A stretch of DNA of 64,000 nucleotides, from the NCBI GenBank assembly GCA_964437335.1, contig CAYTGL010000011.1:6990-70989 (forward strand), given 5' to 3'. The stretch is from an uncultured Chromatiales bacterium (lineage in GTDB: Bacteria; Pseudomonadota; Gammaproteobacteria; SZUA-140). This document shows positions 6,478 through 55,171 of this stretch, one piece after another. A model generated the notes under the pieces. That model worked only from the letters and a program-made list of their open reading frames with translations. It did not search any database and had not been told where the DNA came from. A program made the position numbers and the translations under genes. Each line of letters begins with the position of its first letter. Position 1 is the first letter of the stretch.

Positions 6478-6487
6478 GATCTAGCTC

Positions 6488-9400
6488 CTATTCTTTGTCC
6501 TTAGTTCCTGATACCGCCTTCACTTCCGCCAACAAATCACCGAACTTGCCGTAATTCGCTTTTACGCCGTCGTCGAGGTCGAGCTTGATGCGATGGTCGG
6601 CGTAGTGACGGAGCTTTTCGTCGAATGATTGAACCTCGGCCAGCTGTTTGACAACAGTCGCCTTTTCTGTCTCCAGACGCTTTTTATGTTGGCTGGAAGT
6701 GGCGGCGGCGATTTCGTCCGTCAAGTGGTCGATGCGGGCAGTCATCTTACCGAGCAGTGGAATCACGTACTCAGTGCGCATCCGAGCCAGGGTGCTTTCG
6801 TTGTAGCGGTGGAGGTAGACGAGGGCCTGAAAGCCACGCTGCTTGCCGCTAGAGAAGAGCCAGTAGATGGGCCGCCGCTTGTAGAGCGACAGGTGATGCT
6901 TGTAGAAGTCGGCAGCGAGATAGCGACGGATAGTGTCTCGTGGCGACTCGCCTTTCTTATCGCCCAGGCTCTCGGCCACGAACTTGAGGTTCTCCTCCAG
7001 ATGCTCCTTCGGCCATGCGGTGGCGACGAACTTCTCAAATCGACTGGCGGCATCGTCGGGGAACCAGTGGAACTCGGTGAGCGGAATGATCCCATCTTCG
7101 TCAGCCGGGAAATTGTGGTATTTCGATGGATCGAAGCCGACGTTACCGCTGTGGGCATAGATCAGCCCCGGCTCATCGAGGCTGTACCGGCCCATCATAC
7201 AGCCGGTGGAATAGGAGATGAGCCGCTTGATGTCTTCTTCACAATTAGGGCGATAGAGGGTAATGTGATCATCGGATACTTCCGGGGAGAGTTCATCTTG
7301 GAGACCGTAGGCACGGATCACCGCTTCATTGTTTTTTATTTCGGCTGCCTTCATGTTCCGCAGTATGTCATGGCAACGAGTTACCCATCGTTGATGGGAC
7401 AGACGCACGAGCGGTTCATCAGACCCGCTGCTGGGCAGCAAATCAAGTGTTGAAAAGTCCCACGAATACTCTGAATAATTCCAATCGTTTTTGTGTTGGC
7501 GTACGATTTTCTCAACTAGATCAGAGTCCACTGAGGACAGTGGTGGCACTGGGAGCGTCCTGATTTGACCTACTTCAAAGCCAACTGTTGGGCTGACGAT
7601 TTGCAGGAGCGAGGTTGTTACCGTGCTGTTGAGAATTCCGATAAGGCCAAGCATGTCGTTGGCGTTACTGCAATAAATCCCGCATCCCTTATGACCGATT
7701 ACAAAACCTTCACCGAAAGCTCGAAAAGATGGTGCAGCAATAGAAATAAGACTCCACGTAATTCCAGGCTTGAAATAATATGACTCTGATGGGCACTGGT
7801 TTCCCACGGTTTTCAGCACTTCGTATGAGGCTGCATCAAAGGAAAGGACAAACTCGTTATTCCCGTACCACCTGCGAAATGCCCCTCCCTTATTGTACGG
7901 GAACCACTTTGCGTCACTTTGCCATGCACTGGTCCGAGAATGATGGCCGAATCCTAGTTTTGAACAGGCGACCTCGAACCAGTACCTGATAAAGCGGTCG
8001 TTGTCTCCAGTCGCAAGACCTTGGCGAAGCGTCGCTGACTCTCCCAAAGATGGCATCTCTGCAAAACAATTTCTTGTACGGTCGCTTATCCAATATGCCA
8101 GCGGAGAACCGGGGATTTTCCTGAATTCGTGTCCAGAGGTCTGATAGGGATTCGCCGCTTGGAATCGACGCTGCAACTCGTCGTTGCTTGCAACGCTTCC
8201 CTGCTTTTCAAATAGCTTTAAGTAACTCCCTCGCAATTCTGGCATTACCATATTGCGGAACGTAAAAGCGCAGGTGCCAAAATCTGAACCAAACACTCCA
8301 CGACCATTGTGAACAAAGGTTTCAAATGATTGATGGTTGACTAGACTCTGCCGCATGTCTTGGAACGATGAAAGAAACATCCAGTTCGGAATTGTAATCA
8401 TTCCAACGATTCCGTTGGCTGCCGCAAAACTAGTGTTTCGAGAAATGAAGCAGCCGTATAAATCAGCTTTTGCACTCGTGTATACTGCCGTTACGAACTG
8501 CTTTAGTTGTTTGGAATAATATTTCCCTCCCATGTAGGGCGGATTTGAAACGACTGCTTTGTATTGTCGTGCCAGTAAGACAGTCTGTTTAAGCATCGGC
8601 CAGAATGACAGTGCCGTAGCACTTTCGAACATCCCGCCTTCCATCGTCACAGACCGCACTCGAACAAGAGTCGTTGCCAGGTGATCGGACAACAGCTTTG
8701 GCACCCGAATCAACGAGCCAAACGTCTTGCCGTGCGCAAACAACTCGATCAATTGCGAAACATCTGCCTGCGAGATGTCGCCAGTTGAGCCATCAGGTAA
8801 TGGCGCATTGATCGCTTCCGTAATCTCCTTGGCATCCAGTCCCTTGCTCTCTTGAATCGACAGCACATGCGGCTGCACGCCTCGCTCGAAGATGCTGCGG
8901 TCGTCGGCTCGGGCCTTCATCATCAAGGCGAAGGCGGCAAGCTGTGCAGCCCGGTCGTCGATCTCCAAGCCGTAGAGATTCTTCTCCAAGATCAGCCGGG
9001 GGATGTCCTTGGCCCGGTAGCCTCGCTCTTGGTAGATCGCCTTCAGCAAGTCATAAGCCTCGACCAGGATGTGACCGGAACCGCAAGCCGGATCGAGGAG
9101 CGTGAGTTCCTCCGGGTTCAGACCGTCTGGCGTGATCTCGGCCAGCTTCGCCTGCACTTCCGGCGTTTGCTCGGCAGGCTCGATGTAGTATTCCATCCAG
9201 TATCGCTGATCACCCTCGTTCTCGGGCTTCGTGGACAGCGGCGAGTCGGGGTAGGTGGCGACCCACTGGCGGCCAAGGCTATTCTGCACCAGATACTTGA
9301 CGATCCAATTCGGCGTAAAAAGTTGCGTGGCGGCGGGAATGTCCTCGCTCTTGACCACCTTGCCAATGACCTGATCCTTCTTTTCGCTAATGTAGAACTG

Positions 9401-10033
9401 GTACAACCAGCCGATGATCTCAACGTCCTGCCAGCCCTCCTCGGGAATCTCGTTGATCAGATTGCGAATGAGTGAATCGGAGTGCAGCAAGTGATCGGGC
9501 AGGAGCAATTCCGTCTCATCGTCGATTGACTCGAACAAAAACGGCATCGCCTTTTGCAGAGCGTTGCACTGCGCCAACAGCAGCATCCGGTAGAGTTCTT
9601 CCTCTTTGGTGCCATCGAGCTTGAGTTCGACCACCTTCTTCTTGTCAAGGTCCGGCAGATCGACATGCTCGGCATGACCCACGATCTCGGGCAGGTAGTG
9701 CCCCTCGGAATGGCTCAACACCCGATAGCCATGCTCCAAGTAACCATGCAATTCCAAAAAGCGGATAGCGACCAGCCGGTTGAACCACGTATAGGCGACC
9801 GCTTCCATCGTTTGCCCGAAACCATCCCGCTTGATGCGAGCTTCGAGCTTCTTTCGCTTTTCGCCCACAGCTTTCGTGTGTGGCTTCCCAGCGATGATCG
9901 CCACATCGCCTTCGACCGTCATCGGCTCGATCTTCTTGGCGGTCAGTCCATACTGCGCAGCACGGCTCGTCACCGCCTCGATAAAATCACGGCGAGCCTG
10001 GGGAGCGTAGGATTTGAGCTTGTTGCGGTTCAT
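6488..10033 (-). CDS. pglX: BREX adenine-specific DNA methyltransferase PglX
   Basis: 1181 aa; NPPY catalytic motif (VVSNPPYMGGKYY); AdoMet-binding LDPACGSGHIL; N-terminus MNRNKLKSYAPQARRDFIEAVTSRAAQ typical of PglX. Confidence 0.9.
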   Translation of the reverse strand: MNRNKLKSYAPQARRDFIEAVTSRAAQYGLTAKKIEPMTVEGDVAIIAGKPHTKAVGEKRKKLEARIKRDGFGQTMEAVAYTWFNRLVAIRFLELHGYLEHGYRVLSHSEGHYLPEIVGHAEHVDLPDLDKKKVVELKLDGTKEEELYRMLLLAQCNALQKAMPFLFESIDDETELLLPDHLLHSDSLIRNLINEIPEEGWQDVEIIGWLYQFYISEKKDQVIGKVVKSEDIPAATQLFTPNWIVKYLVQNSLGRQWVATYPDSPLSTKPENEGDQRYWMEYYIEPAEQTPEVQAKLAEITPDGLNPEELTLLDPACGSGHILVEAYDLLKAIYQERGYRAKDIPRLILEKNLYGLEIDDRAAQLAAFALMMKARADDRSIFERGVQPHVLSIQESKGLDAKEITEAINAPLPDGSTGDISQADVSQLIELFAHGKTFGSLIRVPKLLSDHLATTLVRVRSVTMEGGMFESATALSFWPMLKQTVLLARQYKAVVSNPPYMGGKYYSKQLKQFVTAVYTSAKADLYGCFISRNTSFAAANGIVGMITIPNWMFLSSFQDMRQSLVNHQSFETFVHNGRGVFGSDFGTCAFTFRNMVMPELRGSYLKLFEKQGSVASNDELQRRFQAANPYQTSGHEFRKIPGSPLAYWISDRTRNCFAEMPSLGESATLRQGLATGDNDRFIRYWFEVACSKLGFGHHSRTSAWQSDAKWFPYNKGGAFRRWYGNNEFVLSFDAASYEVLKTVGNQCPSESYYFKPGITWSLISIAAPSFRAFGEGFVIGHKGCGIYCSNANDMLGLIGILNSTVTTSLLQIVSPTVGFEVGQIRTLPVPPLSSVDSDLVEKIVRQHKNDWNYSEYSWDFSTLDLLPSSGSDEPLVRLSHQRWVTRCHDILRNMKAAEIKNNEAVIRAYGLQDELSPEVSDDHITLYRPNCEEDIKRLISYSTGCMMGRYSLDEPGLIYAHSGNVGFDPSKYHNFPADEDGIIPLTEFHWFPDDAASRFEKFVATAWPKEHLEENLKFVAESLGDKKGESPRDTIRRYLAADFYKHHLSLYKRRPIYWLFSSGKQRGFQALVYLHRYNESTLARMRTEYVIPLLGKMTARIDHLTDEIAAATSSQHKKRLETEKATVVKQLAEVQSFDEKLRHYADHRIKLDLDDGVKANYGKFGDLLAEVKAVSGTKDKE

Positions 10034-10452
10034 CCGTTCTCGATTTCTTTCTCGTCATGTTGTACGGGAAACACACCTCGACCACTGTCAGATCGTTCGA
10101 TGGCTCCGGCCAACACAATCGGCGATAATCTTTGAAGAAGTTCAAGTAGGTCAGGCCAATCGAACACTCGCACCACGCAGCTTTGATACATCGTCACAAT
10201 CGTTACAATCCATGCTGGAGTCTCCTTGAGGTGACGACTAGCGGATGAGCCACGAACATACTCCCAGAGAGAGAAACAAAAGCTGTTCGTGCCGCCGTAT
10301 TGCTTAGTCTCCATATAGCCAAAATCTGGAAGGTATGAACTCCATTCACCTCTGAATTCATCTTCACCAAAGTAGACCGAGGAAACCGATATAAAATGGC
10401 CATTCTTGAAGATGTAGTGGTCTTGAGACAAGGCATGCACTCCTAAAGACAA
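10030..10452 (-). CDS. Hypothetical protein (140 aa) embedded between brxC and pglX
   Basis: Stop overlaps the pglX start by 4 bp (10030-10033); the segment is visibly AT-richer than the flanking BREX genes; no recognisable motif. Confidence 0.5.
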   Translation of the reverse strand: MSLGVHALSQDHYIFKNGHFISVSSVYFGEDEFRGEWSSYLPDFGYMETKQYGGTNSFCFSLWEYVRGSSASRHLKETPAWIVTIVTMYQSCVVRVFDWPDLLELLQRLSPIVLAGAIERSDSGRGVFPVQHDEKEIENG

Positions 10453-10472
10453 CGGTGATTCGATTTAGGCTC

Positions 10473-13400
10473 CTACCGAATTTGAACCCGTTCACCCCTA
10501 GCGACAGCTTCTTCCAACTCTCTTCGCAAGGCATCCAGGAAGCCTTCAACGTCTTCCTGAGTTTCCAGGTACGTTGTCTTAACCATGGACGATGGCCTTA
10601 TTTCTTTGCGTGGCTTGACTACCACAACTGGCTCATCGCTCTTCTTCGTCTGCTCGTGCTTCTTCTTGAGAAACTCGTCGATCTTCGCCAATGCCCCATC
10701 GAGTGCCCGCTCCGCTTCCTGCACAGCCTGGGCAATGTGGGCCACGCTTTCTTGCTTCTCAACCGACTTTCGCAGTGACTCCAACGGCCCTAAGCAGCTT
10801 GAGCGGAGACTCTCTTCACTACCGAACTTCTCGACCTCCTGCGTAAGCTGTGACTGCAACTCATTGATGCGGGCCAGGGCCTCGACTCGTCGTTGGCTGA
10901 CAATGGCCGAATTGGTCCCCTCGACCGTCGTGATTAGTGCTTCGGCCTCATGGACGAGGTTGTAGGGGCTGGGGGCAGAAAGGATTTCTTGCATTCTCCC
11001 TAACGATTTGCGGGCCTTTTCGTCCCGTTCCAATTCCAACCTATTCAGGCCGAAGCGGTCGTGGGCCTTGCGTAGCTTTTCCCAGGTCGGCTTTTGATAC
11101 CGGTAGAAGTTGTCGATGTCGTGGAACTCTTCCGCCAAGTCAAGTAGTTCGGCTTTGTTCTCGATGAATCGAGCTATAAACTTACCCGGCTCGTCGGCAG
11201 CCAAGAGTGCCTTGATGACTAACAGGCCGTCCGTGATCTCGGTTTGGCCTGGGTAGTTGCCCGTGTCGGCCAGAGTCTTGTATTGCAACAGCGACGACTG
11301 CCAAGCCTGGCACTTCCCCTTAAGGAACTCGAATAGCCCGTCTTCGCTGTCTGGTCCCATTTCGGAGAAAACGTCTTTGCCCAGGTTGCGACATTGTTGC
11401 AGCACCTTGGGATCGGTCATTTTGCGACGGACGACGGTGATGCTTCGCTGCTTGCGGGGAGCAGTGATGTTCTCGAACACCTTGTCCATAGCGATGGAAG
11501 CACCGTTGGTCACTAATTGGATTTCCCCCAACACAAGCAACCTGGCGACAAGGATCAGCACTTCATCGTTTGACCAGCCATACGGTCGCTTTTCATAGCG
11601 GTCGAGCATGTCGAACAATACGACGGGGTGATTGGCCCGATCTGAGAGGCCAATGAACTCACGCACTTCCTCCAGCGCCCGGTCGTTGACGCCCGACATG
11701 GCTGCCTTTTGAATGTCGTTGGCTCGCAGAATCGCTTGCAGTTCTCGCTTTGGCTCATCACTGAACTTGGTGACGTAGGCCATCTTGGAGAAGCTGTTGT
11801 CGATTAGATACTCCAGCGACTCGTCCAAAGCCGTGAGCGGTGCCGATGATTTGATGTCCACTCGTTGGCCGGCAGCGAAGTATGTGGCGTCGGCCATCAG
11901 ATTACCGAGCAGTTGTCGCAGCCGCTCCCGGCGTTCCCGATTATCATCGGCCATGGCTCGGTGGATGCGTTTGGTCGTCTCCGGCAGTGTATCGTCCGAT
12001 TTGGCTCGCAGGAACTTCTCAGTTTGGAGGTACTGCCGTAGTTCACGGGCCAGGTTGGGATCGTCGTTGATCTTTATGATGATTTGCCCGCCATCCTGGC
12101 CACTTTCCCGTTGGAACCGAGCGTCTTCGAACAACTCAGGGTCGGCTTCCCCCAATGGCGTGAAGACCTGAACGGTTAGGTCTTTGTCCACTCGGCTGCC
12201 GTAGGGAAAAGCATCGCAAACTCGATTGAACGAAAAGTCCATTTTGTTCGCTTGGTAGCGATGTTTGCGTGTGCCCTTGAGAACATCATCGAAGACAATT
12301 TCTCCCAGTACCTTGGCTTCTTCGCTGCTGGAGAGATCGACCGACTTGATCTCCCGGTTAATGTCCCGTTCTTCATTGGTGAGGAAGAAGAAGTTATCGC
12401 CGCTACGGTTGATCAGCGTTTCTTTTTCCAGCCGCAGCAGCGACTCCTCGATTCGCTTCTTGAGCGCCAATCGGTCGGCGTCAATCTCATCGATGCAGAG
12501 GGTGGTCAGATTATCGATGTTTCCTCGAATTTCATCCACGTAGCGAATGAGGAACAATACCCGCAGAACGTCGATGTCGAAAGGCTTGAGGCTGGCGTTC
12601 TCCTGAGCCTGGTCGATGGTTCGTTTGACGGCAGTGTCGAGGAAAGATTCGATGGACGGATAGAAGCGGTACAGTGGCACCAGCACACCAACTTCGGCAT
12701 CGGCAACGGCTTTACCTGCCGATTGAAAGGCGTCGAGGATCGACCGCTCACCCCGAGATAGGTGTAGACCTGTTGCCCCCGCTTTGCGAATCGCCTCAAA
12801 AATGCGCTGCACTAATTGGAACTGGTAAGGGGCAAACGGATAGTTACGGCAAAAGTCGTCGCTATCCTTGTACTTATTGAAGGTCATCCCTACGTTGTGG
12901 AACGAAAGCTGGTTGCGAAGGATGTCTCCCTTCTCCCGAAAGATGTCTTCCAGCTTGCCTTGCACGGCGTCCCACTTCGCTAACAGCCGCTCCTGAATGA
13001 CTTCGTCCACGTTGGCGCTGGAGAGCGATAAGCGGGTCTTGAATCGGCCTTGAATCTTGGAAAAGTCGTGCGACTTTGTGCTGCGCAAATCTCCCAGCAC
13101 GGCGTCGATATCTTCCTGAGAGGTAACCACCACCCACGCTCGGCCATTACACATGGTTCCCAGGTCTTCGGTGATCGTTTGCAAATTGAGCATCAGATGG
13201 GTATCGCCACCGATAAACTGGCCGACTTCATCGACGAGGAAGATAATGCGATGTTCCGGCCCTTGGCGGTCGAGGTATTCCTTCACCCATTTGCAGAAGT
13301 TCTCGACTGTGAGGGAGAAGTTGTCTTCGGCTTTGTCGATCCACTTTGCACAAGATTCCTTGGACTGCCCAAGTGTAGCGGCCAGTGCCTCGACCACTTC

Positions 13401-14036
13401 GTCCCGGTTAAACTCATAGGCGTCCCGTTCAGCGAGCCAGTTATTGCCCGTGGCCTTTTCAAACGCTTTGTGAAATGTGGGGAGCAGCCCTTTTTCGTCG
13501 AGGTATCGCTCCATGTGGGCGATGTGAGGATGATCGGGGCTGTAGCCCTGCATTTCGTTCAGGACTTTCAGGAAGACGGCCAATATGGCATCTCGTCCGG
13601 CCCGAGTATCCGCCTTGCTGTCGATATTGAACAGGATGACATCGGTATGGGAGCCAACGGCCCGCTTGATGTCGCCGTAGAGCATGGCGTCCTTGACCTT
13701 GCTCTCGAAGAAATCGACGGCTGGCTTGGACTCACCATTGTGCTGATGCGCCTCGTTAGCAAGCAGGTAGGACAAGATCTTGATGAAGTGCGATTTGCCC
13801 GAGCCAAAGAAGCCCGATATCCAAACGCCGATCCGCCCCGACAGATCTGTGTCCTTAGGGTGGTCAATCGCCTCCACATAGGAGGAGAAGAACTTGCGGA
13901 AGTGCTGGTCGAGTTCCTTGGTAACTACGAACTCATCTAATTCTTGCCAGACGGTGTTTTCATCTAGCTGGTCCGCTTTCACGACGCCGTTGATTGGACG
14001 GTCAATCGGCTTCCTAAATAGCTCGTTGATCTGCAT
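10473..14036 (-). CDS. brxC: BREX ATPase BrxC (PglY-like)
   Basis: P-loop GFFGSGKSHFIKILSYLL. The conserved BrxC N-terminus MQINELFRKPIDRPINGVVKADQ begins at the internal Met at ~14036; the ORF-track start at 14213 would overlap brxB by 165 bp, so the internal start is preferred (position +/-1 nt). Confidence 0.88.
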   Translation of the reverse strand: MQINELFRKPIDRPINGVVKADQLDENTVWQELDEFVVTKELDQHFRKFFSSYVEAIDHPKDTDLSGRIGVWISGFFGSGKSHFIKILSYLLANEAHQHNGESKPAVDFFESKVKDAMLYGDIKRAVGSHTDVILFNIDSKADTRAGRDAILAVFLKVLNEMQGYSPDHPHIAHMERYLDEKGLLPTFHKAFEKATGNNWLAERDAYEFNRDEVVEALAATLGQSKESCAKWIDKAEDNFSLTVENFCKWVKEYLDRQGPEHRIIFLVDEVGQFIGGDTHLMLNLQTITEDLGTMCNGRAWVVVTSQEDIDAVLGDLRSTKSHDFSKIQGRFKTRLSLSSANVDEVIQERLLAKWDAVQGKLEDIFREKGDILRNQLSFHNVGMTFNKYKDSDDFCRNYPFAPYQFQLVQRIFEAIRKAGATGLHLSRGERSILDAFQSAGKAVADAEVGVLVPLYRFYPSIESFLDTAVKRTIDQAQENASLKPFDIDVLRVLFLIRYVDEIRGNIDNLTTLCIDEIDADRLALKKRIEESLLRLEKETLINRSGDNFFFLTNEERDINREIKSVDLSSSEEAKVLGEIVFDDVLKGTRKHRYQANKMDFSFNRVCDAFPYGSRVDKDLTVQVFTPLGEADPELFEDARFQRESGQDGGQIIIKINDDPNLARELRQYLQTEKFLRAKSDDTLPETTKRIHRAMADDNRERRERLRQLLGNLMADATYFAAGQRVDIKSSAPLTALDESLEYLIDNSFSKMAYVTKFSDEPKRELQAILRANDIQKAAMSGVNDRALEEVREFIGLSDRANHPVVLFDMLDRYEKRPYGWSNDEVLILVARLLVLGEIQLVTNGASIAMDKVFENITAPRKQRSITVVRRKMTDPKVLQQCRNLGKDVFSEMGPDSEDGLFEFLKGKCQAWQSSLLQYKTLADTGNYPGQTEITDGLLVIKALLAADEPGKFIARFIENKAELLDLAEEFHDIDNFYRYQKPTWEKLRKAHDRFGLNRLELERDEKARKSLGRMQEILSAPSPYNLVHEAEALITTVEGTNSAIVSQRRVEALARINELQSQLTQEVEKFGSEESLRSSCLGPLESLRKSVEKQESVAHIAQAVQEAERALDGALAKIDEFLKKKHEQTKKSDEPVVVVKPRKEIRPSSMVKTTYLETQEDVEGFLDALRRELEEAVARGERVQIR

Positions 14037-14047
14037 CGCCCCTGCTC

Positions 14048-14623
14048 CTATGGAATTAGCCGAAAGGCACGGTAGTAGTTGTCGCTTCTGATTTTTCCGA
14101 ATAGCCTCAGTACAGTGCCGTCGTAGTTGCCGGGGTAAAACGTCACCAGTGGCGTATCCCCCATGATCGAATGGAGGTTGTTTAGTAGAGAGTGCGAACG
14201 AAGGATCGGCCACACGCTGCCGATGCCTGAGAGCAACACGAGGTCTTGCTCTTTCGGTTGGACTTTCACCTCAAACAGCGGCGCTAGTTTCTGCGGGTGA
14301 AGGATCTTCTCCAATTGCCGCAGGACGAAATCGTCGCCTTTGGTCTTCTGGACTTCCAGCGTTTTGTCCAGCAATTTCCGTTCACGCAAATGTTCGATCA
14401 CAAAGTCGAACAGATTGACATGCGTGATATTCATGCCCGACCTGTGCTTGGGGGCGTGCTCCATCAGGAAGGCAATGTGCTTGCGAACTCGCAGTTCCTC
14501 TTCCGGTGGATAGTCGAAAATGAAGAAGGCGATCTCGTTGCCCAGGCCACGACCGCTGAGGAAGTCATCCGAAGTGATCCGGGGCAAAATTTGATTCAGG
14601 CGTTCTTCAAAGTTGGTCGTCAT
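14048..14623 (-). CDS. brxB: BREX protein BrxB (DUF1788)
   Basis: 191 aa; N-terminus MTTNFEERLNQILPRITSDDFLSGRGLGNEIAFFIFDYPPEEE is typical DUF1788/BrxB; 4-bp overlap with brxA. Confidence 0.85.
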   Translation of the reverse strand: MTTNFEERLNQILPRITSDDFLSGRGLGNEIAFFIFDYPPEEELRVRKHIAFLMEHAPKHRSGMNITHVNLFDFVIEHLRERKLLDKTLEVQKTKGDDFVLRQLEKILHPQKLAPLFEVKVQPKEQDLVLLSGIGSVWPILRSHSLLNNLHSIMGDTPLVTFYPGNYDGTVLRLFGKIRSDNYYRAFRLIP

Positions 14624-15210
14624 GTTCCCACCTGAATGCAGCGGAGGACGTATTCTTCGTGTTGCTTATCCAGGTAGCGAAGCACGGGTTTGGCGATGTG
14701 GACCCGCTGAAGTTTACGGGTCTTGGTGCTGTCGATGTAGCCGACCTCTGCCAGGACGGTGTAAACCGACGAACGCAACCGCATGATCGTTGACTCCGCC
14801 CACTGCGGCATGTCGGGATCACGGCCCCGGCAGTCCTCGATGAAATCGTTCCAGACGTTGAGCGAAAGCGATTCTTTGAACGTGCGGTACTGGTCCCGCA
14901 CCACCAGGTCGAGGAAGTCGCCCAGGAGATTGCTGGCCTTTACTGCTGCGGCCAGGCAGGCGTGTGTCGCCTCGGTGCTTGAGCCGTCCCGAACCAGTCT
15001 CCAAAGCGGGGCTTCGACGGAGGAGAGGCGACCACGGATGAGAACCGAAAGCCGCTTGGCGGTTTTCGGGCTGCGGGCCTGGAGGGCGTTCTTCTCGTAT
15101 ATTGCCGCCCGCCATTCCCGGCTGCTGACCTCCCGCAAAAGGAGATCGGCGACTACCCTACTTTCGGGTAGTTTCAACGCTCCTGCGGTTATGTCGGCGC
15201 TGTAACGCAT
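14620..15210 (-). CDS. brxA: BREX protein BrxA (DUF1819)
   Basis: 196 aa; first gene of the operon; MRYSADITAGALKLPESRVVADLLL is the BrxA-type N-terminus. Confidence 0.85.
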   Translation of the reverse strand: MRYSADITAGALKLPESRVVADLLLREVSSREWRAAIYEKNALQARSPKTAKRLSVLIRGRLSSVEAPLWRLVRDGSSTEATHACLAAAVKASNLLGDFLDLVVRDQYRTFKESLSLNVWNDFIEDCRGRDPDMPQWAESTIMRLRSSVYTVLAEVGYIDSTKTRKLQRVHIAKPVLRYLDKQHEEYVLRCIQVGT

Positions 15211-15479
15211 TCTGGCCCCGCTTAATCAGATCGGGAGCCGAAGGCAGCTTCGCCTTCGGAGTCTCCCATCAACGCTTGCAGATTGTAACGGACGACGATT
15301 CGACTGTAAAGTATTTACATAACATCTTTTGTGTTCTACAATCCGGCTTGTTTTTGGCGGTGGCGCTTCCTGGCTGTTCTGGATCACCCTTTTTCGATGA
15401 GGGGCTGAATTGGTTTCCAGGCCCACCAGACGGGTGGTAAGCGGAATCGCCACCACTTCCGTGGTGAGAGGGTGACGAG

Positions 15480-16496
15480 ATGAGCAACCGGATGGCCTTG
15501 GTCGATCCGTATCTGGATGATGTCGAGCAGTGTTCAGGCAATCGCCCTACCAGTTTTGTTTGCCCGATCCTGTTAGAGGAGTCAGCTGGAGTCGAACTTA
15601 TCGACGGTCACATTCTGCCTCAACGGTTGAAGACTGCGGCGAGGGCGACGGTACTCCAGCGCAAGGACGTGGACAACTTCTTCGGCCACACAATTGAGCC
15701 ACCGCTGATCGAATTCTTGAACAGTATCACGCACAACAAAGCCAACTTTTTGGAGCAGGCGAAAGGAATTCAGATTGTAAGCGTGAATGCTGGACCACTC
15801 GATCTTTTCGTCCCCAACCGGAAGTCGAACCCCCCCTTCCCTAAGCTCCGGTTCCAAGACAGCAAGGGGGTGACGATTGCCTCTCGGCACGTCAAAGGGA
15901 CGCTCGCCAACCTTGGCGGCAAAGAGGGATTGGCAGAAGTTCGTGGAAGCATGTCATTCCACAAGCCATCATTGGATGGGGCCTTGCTCAAGTCGCCGCA
16001 TCTAGCGCTGTTCCGCATTGCTGGCTATCGTTGGGCGTTCAGTGCGCCAGGTCGGTATATCGGTACTACGTTGAAGCAGTTCTTTCGTACAGCGGGCGAG
16101 CAATCGGATGCCGAGGCGTTGTTCGCTGAATTCGCAGCAGCCTTTCACGTCATCCTCAATGACACATTCTCCTTCAATACGTTGACCGATTCGACTGTCT
16201 TGCTGCATGACTATTTGGACGATCCGCATTCGGTCGATCCATTTGCAATCTCCTGCGTCTTCGCTGTTAACGACCGCACGATTCTAGTGACATTGCCTTT
16301 CTGCTCTGGCGACTGCGATTTTCCAGCACGGCTTGATGATTATCGACGCCTTTTAAGCGATTGGCAACTGAACCATCGAATTATTCGGGCGACATTGAGT
16401 AAGGATGGCATAAAGCCAGAGTCGATCATCCAGATGAAGTACACGGAGAACCCGCCGCAAGAATTGATTCGGCCAATACGGTGCGAGGAAGAATGA
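15480..16496 (+). CDS. Hypothetical protein (338 aa), divergent from brxA
   Basis: Long ORF with good coding appearance; possible CP...DGHI..P HNH-like pattern near the N-terminus (weak). Confidence 0.55.
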   Translation: MSNRMALVDPYLDDVEQCSGNRPTSFVCPILLEESAGVELIDGHILPQRLKTAARATVLQRKDVDNFFGHTIEPPLIEFLNSITHNKANFLEQAKGIQIVSVNAGPLDLFVPNRKSNPPFPKLRFQDSKGVTIASRHVKGTLANLGGKEGLAEVRGSMSFHKPSLDGALLKSPHLALFRIAGYRWAFSAPGRYIGTTLKQFFRTAGEQSDAEALFAEFAAAFHVILNDTFSFNTLTDSTVLLHDYLDDPHSVDPFAISCVFAVNDRTILVTLPFCSGDCDFPARLDDYRRLLSDWQLNHRIIRATLSKDGIKPESIIQMKYTENPPQELIRPIRCEEE

Positions 16497-16580
16497 ACGC
16501 AACATTCGAGGTCATTGTTATCCCTAATAGGCAGATAACAAGTACATTCAAACAGTAGTCGAATTCGTGGAGCATTTGCT

Positions 16581-17294
16581 ATGAGCAGTTGGCAGGAAAA
16601 AGCACGATCCTCACGGGCCGCTGAATTGGTCCGGTGGTATTTGCGGTTCAACGGCTACTTCTCCATCGAGAACTTCATAATTCACGAGGCAGACGATCCA
16701 AAAAGGATCAAAGATGGATTGATCCCAGAGATGACAGAATTAGACATCGTTGCCGTGCGATTACCATACTCCCTCGAAGATGCGCAAAACATGCTGATGA
16801 TGGCAAATCACGAATTGTTGGTTGATGGCGGAGCGAACAAGATCGACGTTATTCTTGGCGAGATTAAGACCGGGAAGAGCAATTCACCGAATAAGCGATG
16901 GGTCAATGCCAGTCAGCACAAGGGAATGATTGAGTATGTCGTGAGATTCTGTGGAGTGATGCCGGACGGCAAGGCGCTTACTTCGGCGTGCCAGACAATT
17001 TCCAAGCACTACTGTTACAATGCCGAGGCTCACAGAATCAGATATATGATGTTCTGCAACTCGGAGAATGACCGCCACAAGGAGCGGGGGGTGTCGTACA
17101 TAACGTATAAGGCCATCATCGAATTCTTGGTGTCCATTCGTGGTCAAAGCTGGACAGAAGCCGGTGTAGGCGTCGCTTCACGTCATCAACAATGGGATGC
17201 TCGCATTAGCGGCATGTTCAGAATTGCGAACGATGACTCCTTATCAATGGAGAAAAAACTCGAAGCGGTCACGGGCATTTTTGACCTCGGTTGA
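16581..17294 (+). CDS. PD-(D/E)xK nuclease-fold protein (Hjc/NucS-like core)
   Basis: Motif E-x-TELDIVAV ... VILGEIKTGK matches the D ... (D/E)xK active-site arrangement of restriction-endonuclease-fold enzymes. Confidence 0.55.
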   Translation: MSSWQEKARSSRAAELVRWYLRFNGYFSIENFIIHEADDPKRIKDGLIPEMTELDIVAVRLPYSLEDAQNMLMMANHELLVDGGANKIDVILGEIKTGKSNSPNKRWVNASQHKGMIEYVVRFCGVMPDGKALTSACQTISKHYCYNAEAHRIRYMMFCNSENDRHKERGVSYITYKAIIEFLVSIRGQSWTEAGVGVASRHQQWDARISGMFRIANDDSLSMEKKLEAVTGIFDLG

Positions 17295-17414
17295 CGACAT
17301 CTCAGTCTCCGCCCTAACTTCTCCTCCATCTCATATTCGTGGACACCATCTCAGAACTCGCCTGCTGACTCATTGTGGTAGAATCTGCTTTTTTTCCCCA
17401 AAGGACTGTGAACG

Positions 17415-17720
17415 ATGCCTGGTAGTTCTGAAGTAGGCTATTCCGACCGCACCAAGATTCAAATTGATTTCTTTCGTCACCTAACGACATTGAACGCAAG
17501 CGTACTTGGTTTTTATGCAGCGATTTTTCGAGAGAGGGTTAGTTGGATTGTGTGCGGGATCGTGTTGGCTTCTCTAATTGGAAGTCTTGCAACGCAGTTG
17601 ATTTTGGTAATTTGGCCAGTTGACGATAAACTTAAATGGTATCAGTGGGTTCCCATGTTAATGTGCGAGGGGTTGTTTCTTATCGGCGTTGTCGCAGTTC
17701 TATATCATTTAACACGCTGA
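17415..17720 (+). CDS. Small membrane protein (101 aa, two predicted transmembrane helices)
   Basis: Hydrophobic stretches WIVCGIVLASLIGSLATQLILVIW and GLFLIGVVAVLYHL; follows the nuclease gene on the same strand. Confidence 0.45.
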   Translation: MPGSSEVGYSDRTKIQIDFFRHLTTLNASVLGFYAAIFRERVSWIVCGIVLASLIGSLATQLILVIWPVDDKLKWYQWVPMLMCEGLFLIGVVAVLYHLTR

Positions 17721-18265
17721 AGAACTCGACGTCGCTTGCATCACCCAGTTCGAGTTCGACAACTATCAGCAGGTCGTTGATCAGGAGCGACTTTGCATCG
17801 TCTCCAGATCAACTTTCACGTTGTCGGAAGGCTTAAAGGCCACGTTGGGCAAACGATTGACTTCGAATAGCTTGGCGTCGAAGACAATCACAACCGTTTC
17901 GCCGCTACCTTATCCGAGCGGTTTGTTGTCGGCGTTTACCACCGTTGCGTAGACCAATGGTTGGACCAACAGCCCGGCGAGTTCCGCATCCAGGTAAATC
18001 ACTTGCGCCTTGATTCTTTCGAATTCAACGCTACTCAATGAAATTGCTGTGTTGCTCACAGGAAAGGTCTCAACTGGAGCCGCCATCCGTTGTGTGCGAA
18101 ATCGCTCTGATCGTCCGATCCGAGCCTGGCACGACAGCGTTTGGGCAGTATCGGCATACTCAGGAACGGGCCGGATTGCTCGATCAGCGATAACCATTCA
18201 GTATGATGATGTGGGATCAGAAAGAAGAAGCTTTTCGGGTTGCTCACCACCTATCAGGCAGATTT

Positions 18266-19177
18266 TCAATGCCCAGTTGCCTCAGCGCTGTCGCAAGAGC
18301 AGGGCTTTATGCATTGATTGAGCGTGCCGTTCCGAAGGTGGGCGTTTAATTCGGTGATCGTGATTATCTGGCTCGATTGCGGACTTTCCGCTTCTTGAAC
18401 ACGACCGATGAACCATTTGTCTACCGTGCAGATGATCGCCGGAAGTGCGAACAAATAGAGGAGGGAAATATCTATTCCATCATTCTTCCGCTTCTTACTT
18501 GTCGGGTCATAAGAACTGTCCGACTGAGCAGCATGACTGATACGATCCGCTAAGAAATGCCCCAATAGGTCTAGCTTGACAGCGAAGTCGGGTGCTTCGC
18601 CTGACTTTGGTTGTAGTTCAACCAGTACGATCGCTTTGACTTTCTCCGGCGACCAGCCGGCATCTTTTGCAAGGCACTTCATTTTGTCGATGAACTTAAT
18701 CCAGCGATCACGTTCTTCGGAAACCACGTTTTTCGCTAGCGCAAGATCAGCTTTAATGAGGTGAGTTCCTTGAGAATCCTGGTACTTTATTCCCCGCTTC
18801 AAATCATCAGGTGAAGTAGCCGAGACGAGCAATCGCCACATTGCCTGACCGTGAGACTTGCCATCATCGATATTGAACTCGGACTCCGTGAATAGACCTG
18901 CCATTGCTGCCAACATAGGCCCCCCTGGCAGAATTGGCATTTCCGGATCTAGCACGCTGTTCAGTTCGTGAATGCGTTGAGTCCAGTCACCCCAGGTGAT
19001 GCGATTCTCCAAGAGAGCGATCAACAACTCGGCAACCGCCACCTCTGAAATCGAAACAAGAACTAGGTCTCGGTTCTCGCCAATCAACTTAAGATCCGGT
19101 CGTTCAAGATCTTGGTGAATATGTGCTCGCACGGCACAGGTATCAAGTGCTAGTCGAACTGAAGTAGTCAAGCACAT
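18266..19177 (-). CDS. Hypothetical protein (303 aa), possible PIN-like N-terminus
   Basis: N-terminal LALDTCAV resembles the first acidic motif of PIN domains; otherwise unrecognised. Confidence 0.45.
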   Translation of the reverse strand: MCLTTSVRLALDTCAVRAHIHQDLERPDLKLIGENRDLVLVSISEVAVAELLIALLENRITWGDWTQRIHELNSVLDPEMPILPGGPMLAAMAGLFTESEFNIDDGKSHGQAMWRLLVSATSPDDLKRGIKYQDSQGTHLIKADLALAKNVVSEERDRWIKFIDKMKCLAKDAGWSPEKVKAIVLVELQPKSGEAPDFAVKLDLLGHFLADRISHAAQSDSSYDPTSKKRKNDGIDISLLYLFALPAIICTVDKWFIGRVQEAESPQSSQIITITELNAHLRNGTLNQCIKPCSCDSAEATGH

Positions 19178-19426: not shown

Positions 19427-20578
19427 TTGCCCATGCCCCAATCCATCCCCACTGGCCTAACTCAGGAACACGTCCTCCGCACCCTTGCGGACCTGGATGC
19501 CGGCATCGATCATCCATTTGGCAAGCCGACCGGCTACGAACTGGTCCACAACGACAACCGGTATGCCCCCAAGGCGGTCATTGGCCTGTCTTGCCGCTAC
19601 TCCATCGGTCGCATCCTTCAACCCGAAGAGTTCAGCGGCGGCGAGGCCCCAGGGCAAGCAAACTTCGTCCTGCGTAAACTTGGATTCACTGTGGTGAAAA
19701 AGGGCGAAGAAGAGATTGAGCCGCAGCCTGGCACGGAATGGACGGCAAACGAAGTCCAACTCATCGTGGCCGATTATTTTGCGATGCTGGAAGCCGAACT
19801 TCTCGGCCAACCGTTCAAGAAGTCGGATCATCGAAAGGCACTGATGCCCCAACTCTCTGGCCGATCCAATGGGTCCATCGAGTTCAAGCATCAAAACGTG
19901 AGCGGCGTCCTGGTCGAACTGGGATTGCCTTACATTGAAGGCTACAAACCACGCAGCAATTACCAGGGTATTCTCGCTACCGAGGTTGAAAGCTTCCTGG
20001 ACCAGCATCCTGGCTTCTTGGAAAAGCTGGCCACCGCACCCACCTTGAACCCGGCTTTGAGCGTGCAGATTTCAGCACCCGATTTCGATCAGGTCATCGA
20101 ACCGCCGCCCCAGAAGACAATTGGCCCCAAGCTAACGACCAAACCTTGGTTGACCCGCAAAGCTCGCAAGATCGATTTTGCTGAGCTTGATGCGGTGAAC
20201 CGCCGCCTGGGGAATCTCGGTGAACAATTCGTGTTCGATTTGGAACGGTATCGGTTGAAAGAAGCAGGCCGAGACGATTTGGCTCAGAAGGTGACGTGGG
20301 CATCAAGGGACATTGGCGACGGCCTGGGCTTCGACATTCTTTCGTTCGACGACGCCGACGATTCCGAGAGAATGCTGGAAGTCAAAACGACTGGCCTGGG
20401 AAAGTTCTTTCCCTTCTACGTCACCGGCAACGAGGTCCGCTGTTCAGAGGATATTCCGCAGCAATACCAGCTTTTTCGAGTGTTTGATTTTGGCCGGGAA
20501 CCTCGGCTTTACATCTTGCATGGCTCACTACGGGAGTTATGCCAGCTTGACCCGGTGTTGTATCGGGCGGTGATTTAG
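19427..20578 (+). CDS. DUF3883-domain protein (restriction-associated C-terminal domain)
   Basis: C-terminal GDGLGFDILSFDD...MLEVKTTG...FYVTGNEVRCSE...YQLFRVFDF fits the DUF3883 signature; N-terminal half unassigned. Confidence 0.55.
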   Translation: MPMPQSIPTGLTQEHVLRTLADLDAGIDHPFGKPTGYELVHNDNRYAPKAVIGLSCRYSIGRILQPEEFSGGEAPGQANFVLRKLGFTVVKKGEEEIEPQPGTEWTANEVQLIVADYFAMLEAELLGQPFKKSDHRKALMPQLSGRSNGSIEFKHQNVSGVLVELGLPYIEGYKPRSNYQGILATEVESFLDQHPGFLEKLATAPTLNPALSVQISAPDFDQVIEPPPQKTIGPKLTTKPWLTRKARKIDFAELDAVNRRLGNLGEQFVFDLERYRLKEAGRDDLAQKVTWASRDIGDGLGFDILSFDDADDSERMLEVKTTGLGKFFPFYVTGNEVRCSEDIPQQYQLFRVFDFGREPRLYILHGSLRELCQLDPVLYRAVI

Positions 20579-22072: not shown

Positions 22073-22990
22073 TCAGGATTTCTTTCGCCGAAGAAACGAT
22101 TCCCAGCGTAGCTTCAGCGCCCGACTGCTTGGCTTCTTTGACGAGCATTTGAGAGCTACGCCGTCGAATTCGGCATATCCAGCTTCTCTTGCAGCGGGAT
22201 GAATTTGAACGACAAGTTTCTTCGGTTCAATGCCGATCAAATCCAGGTCGAATAGGGTATGCAGGTCAGCCCGCAGCAGCAATCCATTCTCTGGATGGTT
22301 GTCTCTCTCGCCTCTGTAAGGCTTAATGTGAGCGGCCTCCAAAACGTCCAATAAACGGCACCCAGAGATCATGCAGTTGTCGCCGTATCTTTCCCGTAGC
22401 GACTGCCTGAACACTTGTTGACCTCGGCGGGCTTTGATTTGGCGAAAAGCGATTTCTCTCCAGTCGCCCGGTTCTGGGATGTATTCTGGTCCCCCAATAC
22501 TTTCGCTCGCCTCAACATCGACTAGGTATTCTGAGCCATCGATCTTCTTGAGATGACTGATCCACGATGATTCAAGCGCCCTAGCGGCCTCATCGGCCAA
22601 CATCACTCCCGAAGCTGGCATTCTCCAATAGACTTCCGCAAGTGGGCCATCTTTGATGTCCTCTACCGACAACGGAGTCTGCTCATCCGGATTCAAGATT
22701 CGGTCGAGCACCACGTCTGCACCCAAAGAGGTCTCTCTCCGCAGATTGCGTTCGGGATCAAAATGAGGTTTCTCGGAGACGTGCGAGATACTCGTTCCCG
22801 CAGCAATAATTCCCCTAGGCGACACTCCTTGCTTGAGAAGAAAAACCCGGTCGCCAGGCACCATTTTCTTTGAGTTGCCTGTGCTCCAACGAGTCTTGAA
22901 CGGCTTGCCTTTCGCCGTTTGCTTGCAAACTTTCTCCAAATCCTCCCAGTGCCATCTCGCCGGGTTCCAGGTCAATACAAAGGTTGCCAT
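22073..22990 (-). CDS. HNH endonuclease family protein with N-terminal reader-like domain
   Basis: C-terminal CMISGCRLLDVLEAAHIKPY...NGLLLRADLHTLFD is the HNH (HNH_2-type) motif; N-terminus MATFVLTWNPARW resembles PUA/EVE-like modified-base reader domains (weak). Confidence 0.65.
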   Translation of the reverse strand: MATFVLTWNPARWHWEDLEKVCKQTAKGKPFKTRWSTGNSKKMVPGDRVFLLKQGVSPRGIIAAGTSISHVSEKPHFDPERNLRRETSLGADVVLDRILNPDEQTPLSVEDIKDGPLAEVYWRMPASGVMLADEAARALESSWISHLKKIDGSEYLVDVEASESIGGPEYIPEPGDWREIAFRQIKARRGQQVFRQSLRERYGDNCMISGCRLLDVLEAAHIKPYRGERDNHPENGLLLRADLHTLFDLDLIGIEPKKLVVQIHPAAREAGYAEFDGVALKCSSKKPSSRALKLRWESFLRRKKS

Positions 22991-23419: not shown

Positions 23420-24403
23420 CTACTCCCCCATTTCCTCCACCCACTTCGTCGTCACCCGCACGTATTCGCATTTTCCACCACCCAACCGACCCACACTTTC
23501 CGTCAAGTCGTGTGCGGCACCCAATACGATCAAGCCAAAGGTGCCGTTGTCAAGAACCGCCTTCACCTGGGCGTCGTGACGAGCTTCAATCGTAGCTGGG
23601 TCGAGCTTGACTTCGCCCGTGGCAGCAAGCGGCTGTGCGTTCTGGTATGCCACTGTTTCTTCCAGCGGCAATACGTCGTCCAATTCGCCGGAAACAAGCA
23701 GTCGGCCCGCCGCTCCAATCTCCAGCATGCGGACCTTGTGTTCATCCAGCATCACTTGCAACTTGTTTTGAATTTCCAACGCCTCGTCGCCTAGCTTTCG
23801 AGCCTCCTCAAGTTGCTGGCGGATTACTGGCATTTGTTCACGCTCCATCGAACGCAAAACGGCAATTTTCGCCTGATAGTCGCTCAAAGCATCCGGCGAA
23901 AGCCCCTCACTGTAAACTGCCTTTAAGCCATGGTGCTTGATGAGGCAGCGGAGCAGCGCAATTTGTTCGATTTGAACCAAATCGACTTCCAGCAAAAACT
24001 CTTGGTACAGCCGGTCGATCTCGTTCGGTGACATCTTTTGATCGTTTGCAGTTTCCACGTCTTGGGCGAATAAAGCCTTGGGGAGGAAATGCCAATCTCG
24101 GAGATGAATGATGCGGGAGGTTGGCTTGTCAGTCGTTTTGCTGGATTCGACCTTGGCCACACCTGGCAGTTGCCGCAGGAGGTCAGCAATGGATGAATCC
24201 AGGTCGTCGATCTGAATGCTGCTCTTGGGAACGTAATTGGCAACGGCTTCGGCGGACTCCTCTTCCTGCATAGCGACCTGATGCTGAAGAAAAGGAAGAT
24301 TGGGCACGGAAGGATATCGGCAGGTCGGGAACACAGCCGGAAGAACTAGAGCGGCGGCCAGCAAGCACAGGACCGCCACAATGATTGCCCCTCGAACGCC
24401 CAT
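23420..24403 (-). CDS. Membrane-anchored hypothetical protein (327 aa)
   Basis: N-terminal signal/TM segment (AIIVAVLCLLAAALVLPAVF); starts 1 bp after the stop of the NERD-helicase gene, so probably co-transcribed. Confidence 0.55.
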   Translation of the reverse strand: MGVRGAIIVAVLCLLAAALVLPAVFPTCRYPSVPNLPFLQHQVAMQEEESAEAVANYVPKSSIQIDDLDSSIADLLRQLPGVAKVESSKTTDKPTSRIIHLRDWHFLPKALFAQDVETANDQKMSPNEIDRLYQEFLLEVDLVQIEQIALLRCLIKHHGLKAVYSEGLSPDALSDYQAKIAVLRSMEREQMPVIRQQLEEARKLGDEALEIQNKLQVMLDEHKVRMLEIGAAGRLLVSGELDDVLPLEETVAYQNAQPLAATGEVKLDPATIEARHDAQVKAVLDNGTFGLIVLGAAHDLTESVGRLGGGKCEYVRVTTKWVEEMGE

Positions 24404-26416
24404 TTATTGTCCCCTTTGCCTGGCCAATTCTGCTTGGCGATCTAAGATCTTCACCCATTCGGCAACCAGTCCCTCACCTCGGTAAGCGAAAACCTCCAGG
24501 TATTCGATTGCTCTCGTACAACCAACGTAGAAGTTAATCCTGCCAGCCAGGTCTCGATCAAACTCGTTTGCCGAAGCGAGCAGGACGCAATATGCATCAT
24601 AACCTTTCGCCGAGGCCGTGGTGGAAAGGGTGAGCGTGGATCGCTGGCCCAGCAGCTTGTCCTGCTCCCTGAAAGCAACATGCAGTCCGTCGATGCCCTT
24701 GATCCCGGCGGCGACAACAGCGGCGGCAATTCGTTCGACCCGGTTCTTTCTCATCGAAAGTACCAAGATATCCTGAGGACGAACTCGCTGCTCTTCAATC
24801 AGCCAACGCAACCGAGTTACGATGTCCTGAACTTCTGCTGCCGGCGATGGTGCCATCGAAAGCTTGGGTGCCTCGCCACCACGAACTGCGAAGTTGACCT
24901 TCCAAAATCCTTCTGCGGGCAAAATCAACTGCTTATCTTCCAGGCTGGCAATATCACCAAATTCCTTCGTGGGAACATCGGCCTTGTCGTCAGCCGCCGT
25001 CCCATACAGCACGTTAAAGGCGGCTTCCACAATGGGACGAGTGTTGCGAAAGCATTGGGACATCACGTGTGCCCGGCCACCCCTGACGTTAAGGCCAACA
25101 GACAACCAGTTGGGCCGCTTTCGTCCGAGGAAGTTCTGGGCATCGTCGTAGAAGACGTAAATGTTTGGATCGTGTCCTTCAGCAACCTGGCAAAGTTCCT
25201 TGAGCAGCCGGAAATCTTCTTCCAGGAAATCCTGCCCTTCGTCCACGAAGATCGCATCGTAAGCCACGGCGTCAAAGATTTCGGGATGCTTCTGCTTTAC
25301 GTCCAGCAGTTCCTTCAAGTATTGCGCCGCCCGATCTTCATCTGTCCCAGCTTCAATTCGTTGGTATCGCCACAGCCCCTTCTGGGACAAGTGCCACATC
25401 AGCCGATTGTAGGAGAAGACTTCGACTCCCTCGGCAGGAAGTGGCTGTCCAGTTCGCTGTTGATAAGCCAGCCCGATTTTCTTTTCCAAAAAGGGCACCA
25501 GCGACCGGTTGTTGCAGACCGCCAGTATTCGTGGTGCCGGGCTTGAGTCCTTAAACAGATCGTTTTCAACCTGCAACCGCTGTAGCCGTCGAGCGAGATT
25601 GTTCGCCAAGACGATTGTCTTACCGCTGCCGGCCACGCCACGGATCAATCGTGGCCCTTCGTGCCAATTCTGCGAGGACAGCTTCTGTTGTTCATCCGAG
25701 AGCGTTTTGTACGTTTCGGCGGCCTCATCAAACAGTTCCCCCAGCGTCCCCTCAGGAACCCGACGAACTTCCCTTTCTTCGGGGCCGTGAAACAGTACCG
25801 AGGAATCGCCAAAGGCCGCCCAAACCGCTGCTATTTGATCAGCAGGCCACGATTTCATTCCCAAATTGGCCAGTTGTATTTGGCCAATGCTACGAAGGCG
25901 GTCGCCCAATCCTGCGAGATCTTCGCTGAAGATGAACTCGTTCGGGCAATAAGCTTGGTCGCCCCACCTGGCTAGCCAGGTCGCCTTGCTGATCCTGGGA
26001 AAGGCCACCCAATACTTGAAGGACAAGAACAAATCGCCGTCAAATGCCTGCTCGGTGGCATTCTTGACGTCGAACATGGCACTGCGGACCTGAGCCACGG
26101 GGTTTCTCGTGCGGTTGCCGCTTTCGTACCGGAACCGAAGCTGGCCCCCTGGCTCGATTGCTTCAATTTGATCCAGATCGTGGCCCTTCACTTCGATGAC
26201 GTGCAGGCCAGCCACGGTATCGACCAGAACCAGGTCGGGAGGCCGTTTGGTGGTGCGAGCCAAGCTTGGTTCACAAAGCACGGTGGCGTCCGGGTGGTTG
26301 AATCCCTGGACTAAACTGGCCATCGTCTGTCGATGGGCGTCGTTGCCAGCGTCCTCCCAGCCGAAGACACGACATTTCGCAGAATTCACCAGTCGTTCAA
26401 GCTCGTTTTGTCGCAT
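24404..26416 (-). CDS. NERD-domain nuclease fused to UvrD/SF1-like helicase
   Basis: N-terminal PDLVLVDTVAGLHVIEVKGHDL (NERD, PD-(D/E)xK-like); Walker A IRGVAGSGKTIV; Walker B IFVDEGQDF; SF1 helicase C-terminal region. Confidence 0.75.
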   Translation of the reverse strand: MRQNELERLVNSAKCRVFGWEDAGNDAHRQTMASLVQGFNHPDATVLCEPSLARTTKRPPDLVLVDTVAGLHVIEVKGHDLDQIEAIEPGGQLRFRYESGNRTRNPVAQVRSAMFDVKNATEQAFDGDLFLSFKYWVAFPRISKATWLARWGDQAYCPNEFIFSEDLAGLGDRLRSIGQIQLANLGMKSWPADQIAAVWAAFGDSSVLFHGPEEREVRRVPEGTLGELFDEAAETYKTLSDEQQKLSSQNWHEGPRLIRGVAGSGKTIVLANNLARRLQRLQVENDLFKDSSPAPRILAVCNNRSLVPFLEKKIGLAYQQRTGQPLPAEGVEVFSYNRLMWHLSQKGLWRYQRIEAGTDEDRAAQYLKELLDVKQKHPEIFDAVAYDAIFVDEGQDFLEEDFRLLKELCQVAEGHDPNIYVFYDDAQNFLGRKRPNWLSVGLNVRGGRAHVMSQCFRNTRPIVEAAFNVLYGTAADDKADVPTKEFGDIASLEDKQLILPAEGFWKVNFAVRGGEAPKLSMAPSPAAEVQDIVTRLRWLIEEQRVRPQDILVLSMRKNRVERIAAAVVAAGIKGIDGLHVAFREQDKLLGQRSTLTLSTTASAKGYDAYCVLLASANEFDRDLAGRINFYVGCTRAIEYLEVFAYRGEGLVAEWVKILDRQAELARQRGQ

Positions 26417-55147: not shown

Positions 55148-55171
55148 ATGCCGTAGCGGTCTCGATAGAGA

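Follow-up and report, generated by a model that had tools for sequence, protein, structure and literature searches.

A probable mosaic of single-gene defence candidates and an orphan reading frame at the brxA end of a type I BREX locus from an uncultured Chromatiales bacterium

Accessory genes of bacteriophage exclusion (BREX) loci include those for the WYL regulator BrxR and for BrxU/GmrSD. Stand-alone PD-(D/E)xK and HNH nucleases also recur beside BREX loci, where a 2026 survey proposed them as auxiliary or backup effectors, the criteria for such effectors being an adjacency of at most about 100 nt, a conserved orientation and a recurrence across several phyla (PMC12839542). According to this survey, a nuclease located beside BREX is an already known pattern. 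The stretch of 64,000 nucleotides analysed here (contig CAYTGL010000011.1 of an uncultured Chromatiales bacterium, hereafter the window) contains a type I BREX locus and, divergently from its first gene brxA, three consecutive open reading frames (ORFs) referred to as A, B and C (Table 1). An original prediction, made from the sequence of the window, had considered these three ORFs as one defence cassette, of the kind in which a nuclease is associated with a small membrane protein. The comparative analyses presented here lead to another reading, which we consider the probable one: A, B and C are mosaic defence-island cargo at the brxA end of BREX, made of two independent single-gene defence candidates and of an orphan ORF.

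The evidence for this reading comes primarily from the distribution of the three ORFs among 82 related loci, gathered by looking up the contigs of exact proteins, by two scans (one of genomes, one of metagenomes) and through a single plasmid match. A is found in 18 of these loci and B in 64, and not one of the 82 harbours both. A hidden Markov model (HMM) of the A family gave no match in the B loci, and the clustering of the neighbouring ORFs revealed no conserved partner for A or for B beyond near-identical contigs. C was retrieved by tblastn in none of the 82 loci, and a small ORF with two transmembrane segments (2-TM) is absent 3' of B from all 24 of the other distinct B loci whose sequence extends far enough downstream. 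With A and B never together and C nowhere else, the interpretation of the three ORFs as a conserved cassette is not supported. Two observations had been named in advance as jointly damaging to that proposal, the absence of the trio from other genomes and a lack of conservation of the nuclease motif among homologues; the trio was indeed found nowhere else, and the motif is conserved. The description of the locus itself holds: the three ORFs are present on the plus strand, they diverge from brxA across a spacer of 269 bp, B possesses the PD-(D/E)xK motif (D55 at 100%, E94 and K96 at 97% in 40 members), C displays its two hydrophobic segments, and the defence-island setting is supported by BREX and by further defence genes in the window.

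None of the three proteins matched a family of Pfam, PADLOC, NCBIfam or PHROGs, and sequence searches of the PDB, with the single proteins as well as with profiles, returned no match. As their homologues are full length and aligned from the same start, A and B are real conserved genes. The A family, as recovered by a profile search, is composed of more than 120 clusters, nearly all of about 330 aa and none with a Pfam domain; the named clusters are all but one called hypothetical. Genome matches to A belong to Planctomycetota, Acidobacteriota and one deltaproteobacterium, and A is absent from the phage and plasmid collections. Among 108 members of the family, the conservation reaches 100% for C28, P29, H44, D65, E73, Y183 and P273, and 99% for K171. 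The AF2 model of A is confident (pLDDT 88.3, pTM 0.85) and its residues 40-71 form a predicted beta-beta-alpha unit (strands 40-44 and 57-61, helix 62-71), in which H44 closes the first strand and D65 is situated in the helix, after the second strand. Foldseek retrieved nothing for this model in the PDB (best E-value 0.43) or in BFVD, and no nuclease is present among the 50 best matches listed for either database. In L003 (8001-9016), L009 (7599-8575) and L008 (6104-7073), L numbers designating the related loci, the A-family gene is split by a frameshift or matches in two pieces, which could correspond to pseudogenisation or to an assembly error.

The N-terminal part of A displays a likeness to HNH_2 (PF13391), with C28-x15-H44-I-L-P ... 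Q-R-K-D-V-D65-N-F-F in A for C-x14-H-I-K-P ... L-R-A-D-L-H-T-L-F in HNH_2. A by-eye alignment with the EVE-HNH_2 protein encoded in the window gives nearly equal spacings (CMISG..LEAAHIKP..NGLLLRADLHTLFD in the latter, CPILL..LIDGHILP..ATVLQRKDVDNFFG in A), and the motif of A is carried by a predicted beta-beta-alpha unit. Unlike HNH_2, A presents an Asp in place of the last metal-binding His and lacks the Asn of NG, and its unit is N-terminal, followed by about 240 residues without a recognised fold.

The closest homologue of A (P0018, 68% identical) occupies the same divergent position beside brxA-brxB-brxC in L075/L076, whose BrxA is 81% identical to that of the window, and in L075 it is followed by an unrelated protein with an HExxH motif. 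L080, whose A is 61% identical, starts inside brxA, its first 19 nt being the reverse complement of the brxA start, and continues with the shared intergenic region, an HNH gene, A and a gene for a DUF6602 PD-DExK (NucC-like) protein. The divergent brxA-A pair with a homologous spacer is common to the window, L075/L076 and L080; P0024, the mis-called N-terminus of which translates the same leader, is a probable fourth case. A thus keeps its place beside brxA in this BREX lineage, and the genes beyond A vary. Other A homologues are associated with different systems. A short prokaryotic Argonaute (pAgo) system, made of an HNH-APAZ protein of 436-454 aa and a short pAgo of 484-487 aa, is located directly upstream of A homologues in L077 (470-3257) and L001 (4347-7092), the same arrangement being found in L077-79 and L001, and L002 has its A homologue beside an SNF2 helicase and an MmeI-type methylase; these homologues found beside pAgo (L001, L077) or SNF2/MmeI (L002) are close ones, 58-62% identical. 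A further short pAgo system, frameshifted, occurs 5 kb from the A homologue in L003 (14395-16682). Within 6 kb of A-family genes, PADLOC recognised PDC-S65, DrmA/DrmD, pAgo with SIR2 or HNH-APAZ, SduA, restriction-modification (RM) and type IV enzymes.

The gene 3' of A is a different, unrelated one in each of eight distinct arrangements. It is B in the window, the 214-aa HExxH protein in L075, proteins of 224 and 306 aa in L001, an ADP-ribosylglycohydrolase in L002/L003, a 561-aa protein plus Mrr_cat in L077, the DUF6602 PD-DExK protein in L080 and a protein of 216/224 aa in L007/L009, while a convergent gene is found at this place in the distant members L004, L005, L006, L008 and L073. No hidden homology was found among the proteins encoded 3' of A. 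An N-terminal module of about 70 aa, with weak similarity to alpha/beta-hydrolases, recurs in L001 (9712-9924), L077 (6177-6389), L002 (13333-13767) and L080 (3114-3242); its copies are 51-70% identical and lead into C-termini that differ, among them one carrying Mrr_cat and another an HExxH region, a sharing which suggests domain shuffling among the genes near A.

The spacer between brxA and A is homologous to the brxA-upstream region of L075/L076 and L080 (nhmmer E-values from 3e-37 to 2e-55), and the window and the related brxA-A spacers have in common the exact 12-mer TCTGGATCACCC (15378-15389 in the window). A promoter scan located back-to-back promoter-like hexamers at 15282-15310 on the minus strand and 15314-15342 on the plus strand, around the palindrome TGTAAAGTATTTACA. 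No Rfam family matched the spacer. The suggestion of a regulatory region shared between the BREX operon and the three ORFs is plausible as far as A and BREX are concerned, their spacer being kept in L075/L076 and L080, and does not extend to B and C, which are specific to the window. A conserved non-coding element of 170 nt 5' of A was considered as an RNA leader and rejected: because L080 begins inside brxA, the element could be reassigned to the brxA-upstream region of this BREX clade, and no copies were found beyond those loci. The spacer also contains an inverted repeat, GGTGGCGCTTCC / GGAATCGCCACC (15359-15370 / 15443-15454), the arms of which are 72 nt apart, and a tight hairpin, CCGAAGGC-N6-GCCTTCGG (15238-15259), just upstream of brxA; these inverted repeats are possible operator or leader structures.

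Relatives of B consist of 16 clusters retrieved by an indexed search of 5.8 billion proteins and of 61 more loci from the metagenome scan. E30, E53-x-D55 and E94-x-K96 were invariant in a first alignment, and over 40 distinct full-length members the conservation reaches 100% for D55, 97% for E94, 97% for K96, 95% for E53 and 93% for E30. The AF2 model of B (pLDDT 82) begins with a helix followed by strands; strand 52-60 bears D55, and strand 88-95 has E94-x-K96 at its end. B thereby carries the PD-(D/E)xK catalytic signature, in which beta-2 provides an acidic residue and beta-3 the (D/E)-x-K. The best matches of the model in Foldseek are weak (E-value 9e-3 for the first) and nearly all of the PD-(D/E)xK type, including AF1548, the R2 restriction-like endonuclease, Cap4, HamA, Cas4, McrC and AddB. 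No curated PD-(D/E)xK family of Pfam, PADLOC, NCBIfam or PHROGs matched B, the PDB profile search was empty, and the scan of each member of the family gave only one weak match, to Tox-REase-3 (E-value 0.23). Given the conserved motif and fold matches of that kind, B is, as predicted from its sequence and its model, a PD-(D/E)xK nuclease of a family missing from curated libraries. Its C-terminal half, of about 130 aa, is family-specific, with R154, R187, H202, Q204 and W205 conserved.

PADLOC systems found within 6 kb of B-family genes are Gabija twice, PDC-M55C, a DRT-type helicase and AriA, Gabija being present in 2 of the 19 neighbourhoods. In L082 (103-6154), a B homologue 49% identical to that of the window has the gene of a DUF4238 protein on one side and, on the other, a Gabija pair that is complete (GajA, GajB), and another homologue is found beside Cas3/Cas6 and RES-Xre. 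B adjoins BREX in none of its 64 other loci. It is absent from phage records and has a single distant match in 72,556 plasmid records. The DUF4238 protein encoded upstream of the L082 homologue was considered as a remote relative of A and rejected by hmmsearch and phmmer; hhalign also gave no significant match between the A profile and the DUF4238 protein.

The hydrophobic segments of C extend over residues ~43-68 and ~78-99. A phmmer search of 1.84 billion representative proteins returned no homologue of C but itself. Its composition is distinct, with a GC content of 43.5% and a GC content at third codon positions (GC3) of 0.42, compared to 0.61-0.62 for A and B and 0.63-0.74 for the BREX genes. 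Restricted to the window, C is an orphan of uncertain coding status, which may have been acquired recently from a foreign source or may not be a gene at all, and it may not be expressed. Several 12-nt inverted repeats are present in the 545-bp gap that follows it (17721-18265). On the other side of this gap, a 303-aa ORF (18266-19177, minus strand) is convergent on C; it has no family match (best Sigma70_r3, E-value 0.11), and none of the 82 loci contains a homologue of it.

If A and B are indeed independent pieces of a mosaic, we infer that A would act as a single-protein effector, of the defence or auxiliary kind. The beta-beta-alpha unit at its N-terminus would constitute a metal-dependent, perhaps degenerate, His-Me-finger (HNH_2-like) nuclease centre, with H44 as the general base and with D65 and E73 holding the metal, and the other 240 residues would be devoted to recognition or control. 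In this BREX lineage, A would probably be expressed from a control region of about 270 bp shared with brxA. B would be an independent, solitary Mg-dependent endonuclease relying on D55 and E94-x-K96, most likely restriction-like or serving as a backup, whose family-specific C-terminal domain would probably select the target. C is a conserved partner of neither.

Several points weigh against this reading. The three ORFs are on the same strand, separated by gaps of 84 bp (A to B) and 120 bp (B to C) and by no convincing terminator, and the inverted repeat of the A-B spacer shows no significant folding (z -0.8); A, B and C could be co-transcribed here and represent a functional pairing specific to the window. 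Most of the comparison contigs are short, at least 1.2 kb of upstream sequence being available in just 33 of 62 B loci. The association with defence islands is qualitative and is partly established with generic PADLOC models; A also adjoins housekeeping genes, for example thiC in L071/72. Concerning the putative nuclease centre of A, no HNH model of Pfam matched any of 14 members at E-values up to 10, hhalign of the A profile gave probabilities of at most 0.2% with two Pfam HNH_2 proteins and of 1.3% with an HNH/HNH_5 protein, and Foldseek provided no HNH support in the PDB or BFVD. As these profile and fold tests fail, A is not classed as an HNH protein, and the suggestion that it could be a nuclease draws on its motif and its predicted secondary structure.

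The alternative that survives best, though we find it rather unlikely, makes A a lineage-specific BREX accessory, acting as an effector (auxiliary or backup) or as a regulator and expressed from the shared control region, with B and C as unrelated cargo. It accounts for the divergent brxA-A pair and its conserved spacer in three independent contigs, with P0024 as the probable fourth, as well as for the back-to-back promoter-like sites around a palindrome, and it agrees with the auxiliary nucleases already described beside BREX (PMC12839542). However, the three BREX cases are related (BrxA 81% identical), so that shared ancestry explains them equally well, the close homologues (58-62%) of L001 and L077 adjoin pAgo/HNH-APAZ and that of L002 an SNF2 helicase and an MmeI-type methylase, and the distant members have no BREX nearby.

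In another alternative, A would be a sensor or adaptor that is conserved, and the position after it a slot for variable effectors, occupied by B in the window and elsewhere by Mrr_cat, DUF6602 PD-DExK, an HExxH protease or an ADP-ribosylglycohydrolase. Five distant loci (L004, L005, L006, L008 and L073) have a convergent next gene and therefore no downstream partner, and B is present in 64 loci without an A-like protein; the fact that several loci possess a same-strand gene 4-70 bp 3' of A, in several cases for a hydrolase or a nuclease, has to be considered knowing that nucleases are common in defence islands anyway. We regard such a slot as quite improbable.

It is very doubtful that B, instead of being a defence gene, encodes a mobile-element nuclease or a toxin (for example homing-type, transposon-associated or belonging to a toxin-antitoxin pair). 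Neither a conserved antitoxin-like neighbour nor a transposase accompanies it, it is missing from phage records with one match in 72,556 plasmid records, and its neighbours, among which are Gabija, CRISPR and BREX, are indicative of defence islands, against which can be set its solitary nature, its patchy distribution, its variable contexts and its occurrence close to integrases and, in the case of a plasmid, to a group II intron.

Least credible, and highly improbable in our opinion, is a single abortive-infection or defence operon with B as the nuclease effector, C as its membrane partner and A as a sensor, since the shared strand, the short gaps, the purine-rich Shine-Dalgarno-like stretch that precedes each ORF and the defence-island setting are countered by co-occurrence data that already largely refute it (A and B together in 0/82 loci, C without homologue, no 2-TM ORF 3' of B in 24 other loci), by the GC3 of C (0.42 versus 0.61-0.62 for A and B) and by the unrelated gene that follows the closest A homologue at the same BREX position.

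Should the mosaic reading be true, the units would be A alone and B alone, and treating adjacent same-strand ORFs of an island as one system would mislead cloning as well as annotation. The A and B families are reasonable new candidates for single-gene defence because each is missing from Pfam and PADLOC and is found in defence-rich neighbourhoods. A is the more interesting of the two, with its more than 120 clusters, its confident model devoid of fold match and its recurrence at the edges of BREX and short Argonaute loci, and it bears on the question of how BREX loci acquire nuclease partners. The overall result is ordinary in kind and its modest interest lies in family A. A bolder and tentative proposal is that A represents a new family of single-protein anti-phage effectors, with a fold unseen in the PDB and BFVD and a degenerate His-Me-finger site (C28/H44/D65/E73), which would have been repeatedly recruited to the 5' flank of BREX, and to short-pAgo and DISARM-like loci, as a second line of defence and would share the BREX control region in this lineage, with B forming another new family, independent of A, of restriction-like PD-(D/E)xK defence nucleases.

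The surroundings of the three ORFs are consistent with their position in a defence island, which reaches at least 30 kb in the window (Table 1). The type I BREX locus is complete, with BrxA, BrxB, BrxC, PglX, PglZ and BrxL all matched by PADLOC (E-values from 1e-71 down to 0). Two small ORFs of 199 and 178 aa are embedded in its operon, in the pglX-pglZ interval (5345-6477, minus strand); they belong to no Pfam or PADLOC family and have homologues in none of the 82 loci. Further to the right, a tmRNA gene with the tag AENNLALAA is located at 51160-51520 on the minus strand, directly to the right of which the GC content rises to 61-67% (53000-60000); this gene may be the edge of a lower-GC island carrying BREX.

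Table 1. Position of A, B, C and of the surrounding features in the window
Feature	Coordinates	Strand	Size, match or remark
Type I BREX locus	692-15210		brxA-brxB-brxC-pglX-(two small ORFs)-pglZ-brxL
brxA	14620-15210	-	Pfam BrxA, E-value 1.2e-48; first gene of the BREX locus, not part of A-B-C
brxA-A spacer	15211-15479		269 bp
Gene A	15480-16496	+	338 aa
Perfect 8-bp inverted repeat	16515-16541		TTGTTATC-N11-GATAACAA; in the 84-bp A-B spacer
Gene B	16581-17294	+	237 aa; predicted stand-alone PD-(D/E)xK nuclease
ORF C	17415-17720	+	101 aa; two hydrophobic segments
PDC-S36 / NOV_C	19427-20578	+	PADLOC, E-value 7e-101
EVE + HNH_2 protein	22073-22990	-	Pfam HNH_2, E-value 3e-13; resembles a type IV restriction enzyme
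Unknown 327-aa ORF with NERD+UvrD helicase	23420-26416	-	NERD+UvrD at 24404-26416
PIN_8 protein	30082-31425	-	

Compared with described systems, A resembles the BrxR and BrxU/GmrSD accessories in being a non-core gene that flanks a type I BREX locus on its brxA side and is conserved in related loci. Unlike these, it has neither WYL or helix-turn-helix (HTH) nor GmrSD domains, it is divergent instead of co-oriented, and it also occurs with pAgo, with DISARM-like systems or alone. With respect to the criteria of adjacency, orientation and recurrence given for BREX auxiliary effectors (PMC12839542), A is situated 269 bp from brxA, in divergent orientation, and recurs in three related contigs only. 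B shares with the auxiliary nucleases of the same survey the state of a single gene adjoining BREX, and differs from them by the absence of a BREX link in its 64 other loci. The window also recalls the abortive-infection cassettes that combine a nuclease and a small membrane protein, as a 2-TM ORF comes after the nuclease gene in the same orientation, but the pairing of B with C is unique to the window and C is an orphan of atypical composition. The likeness of B to stand-alone PD-(D/E)xK cores (Mrr_cat, AF1548 and Hjc-YraN-type) resides in its helix followed by strands bearing D55 and E94-x-K96, whereas it departs from them by having no match in the libraries and by possessing a C-terminal half of about 130 aa that is proper to its family.

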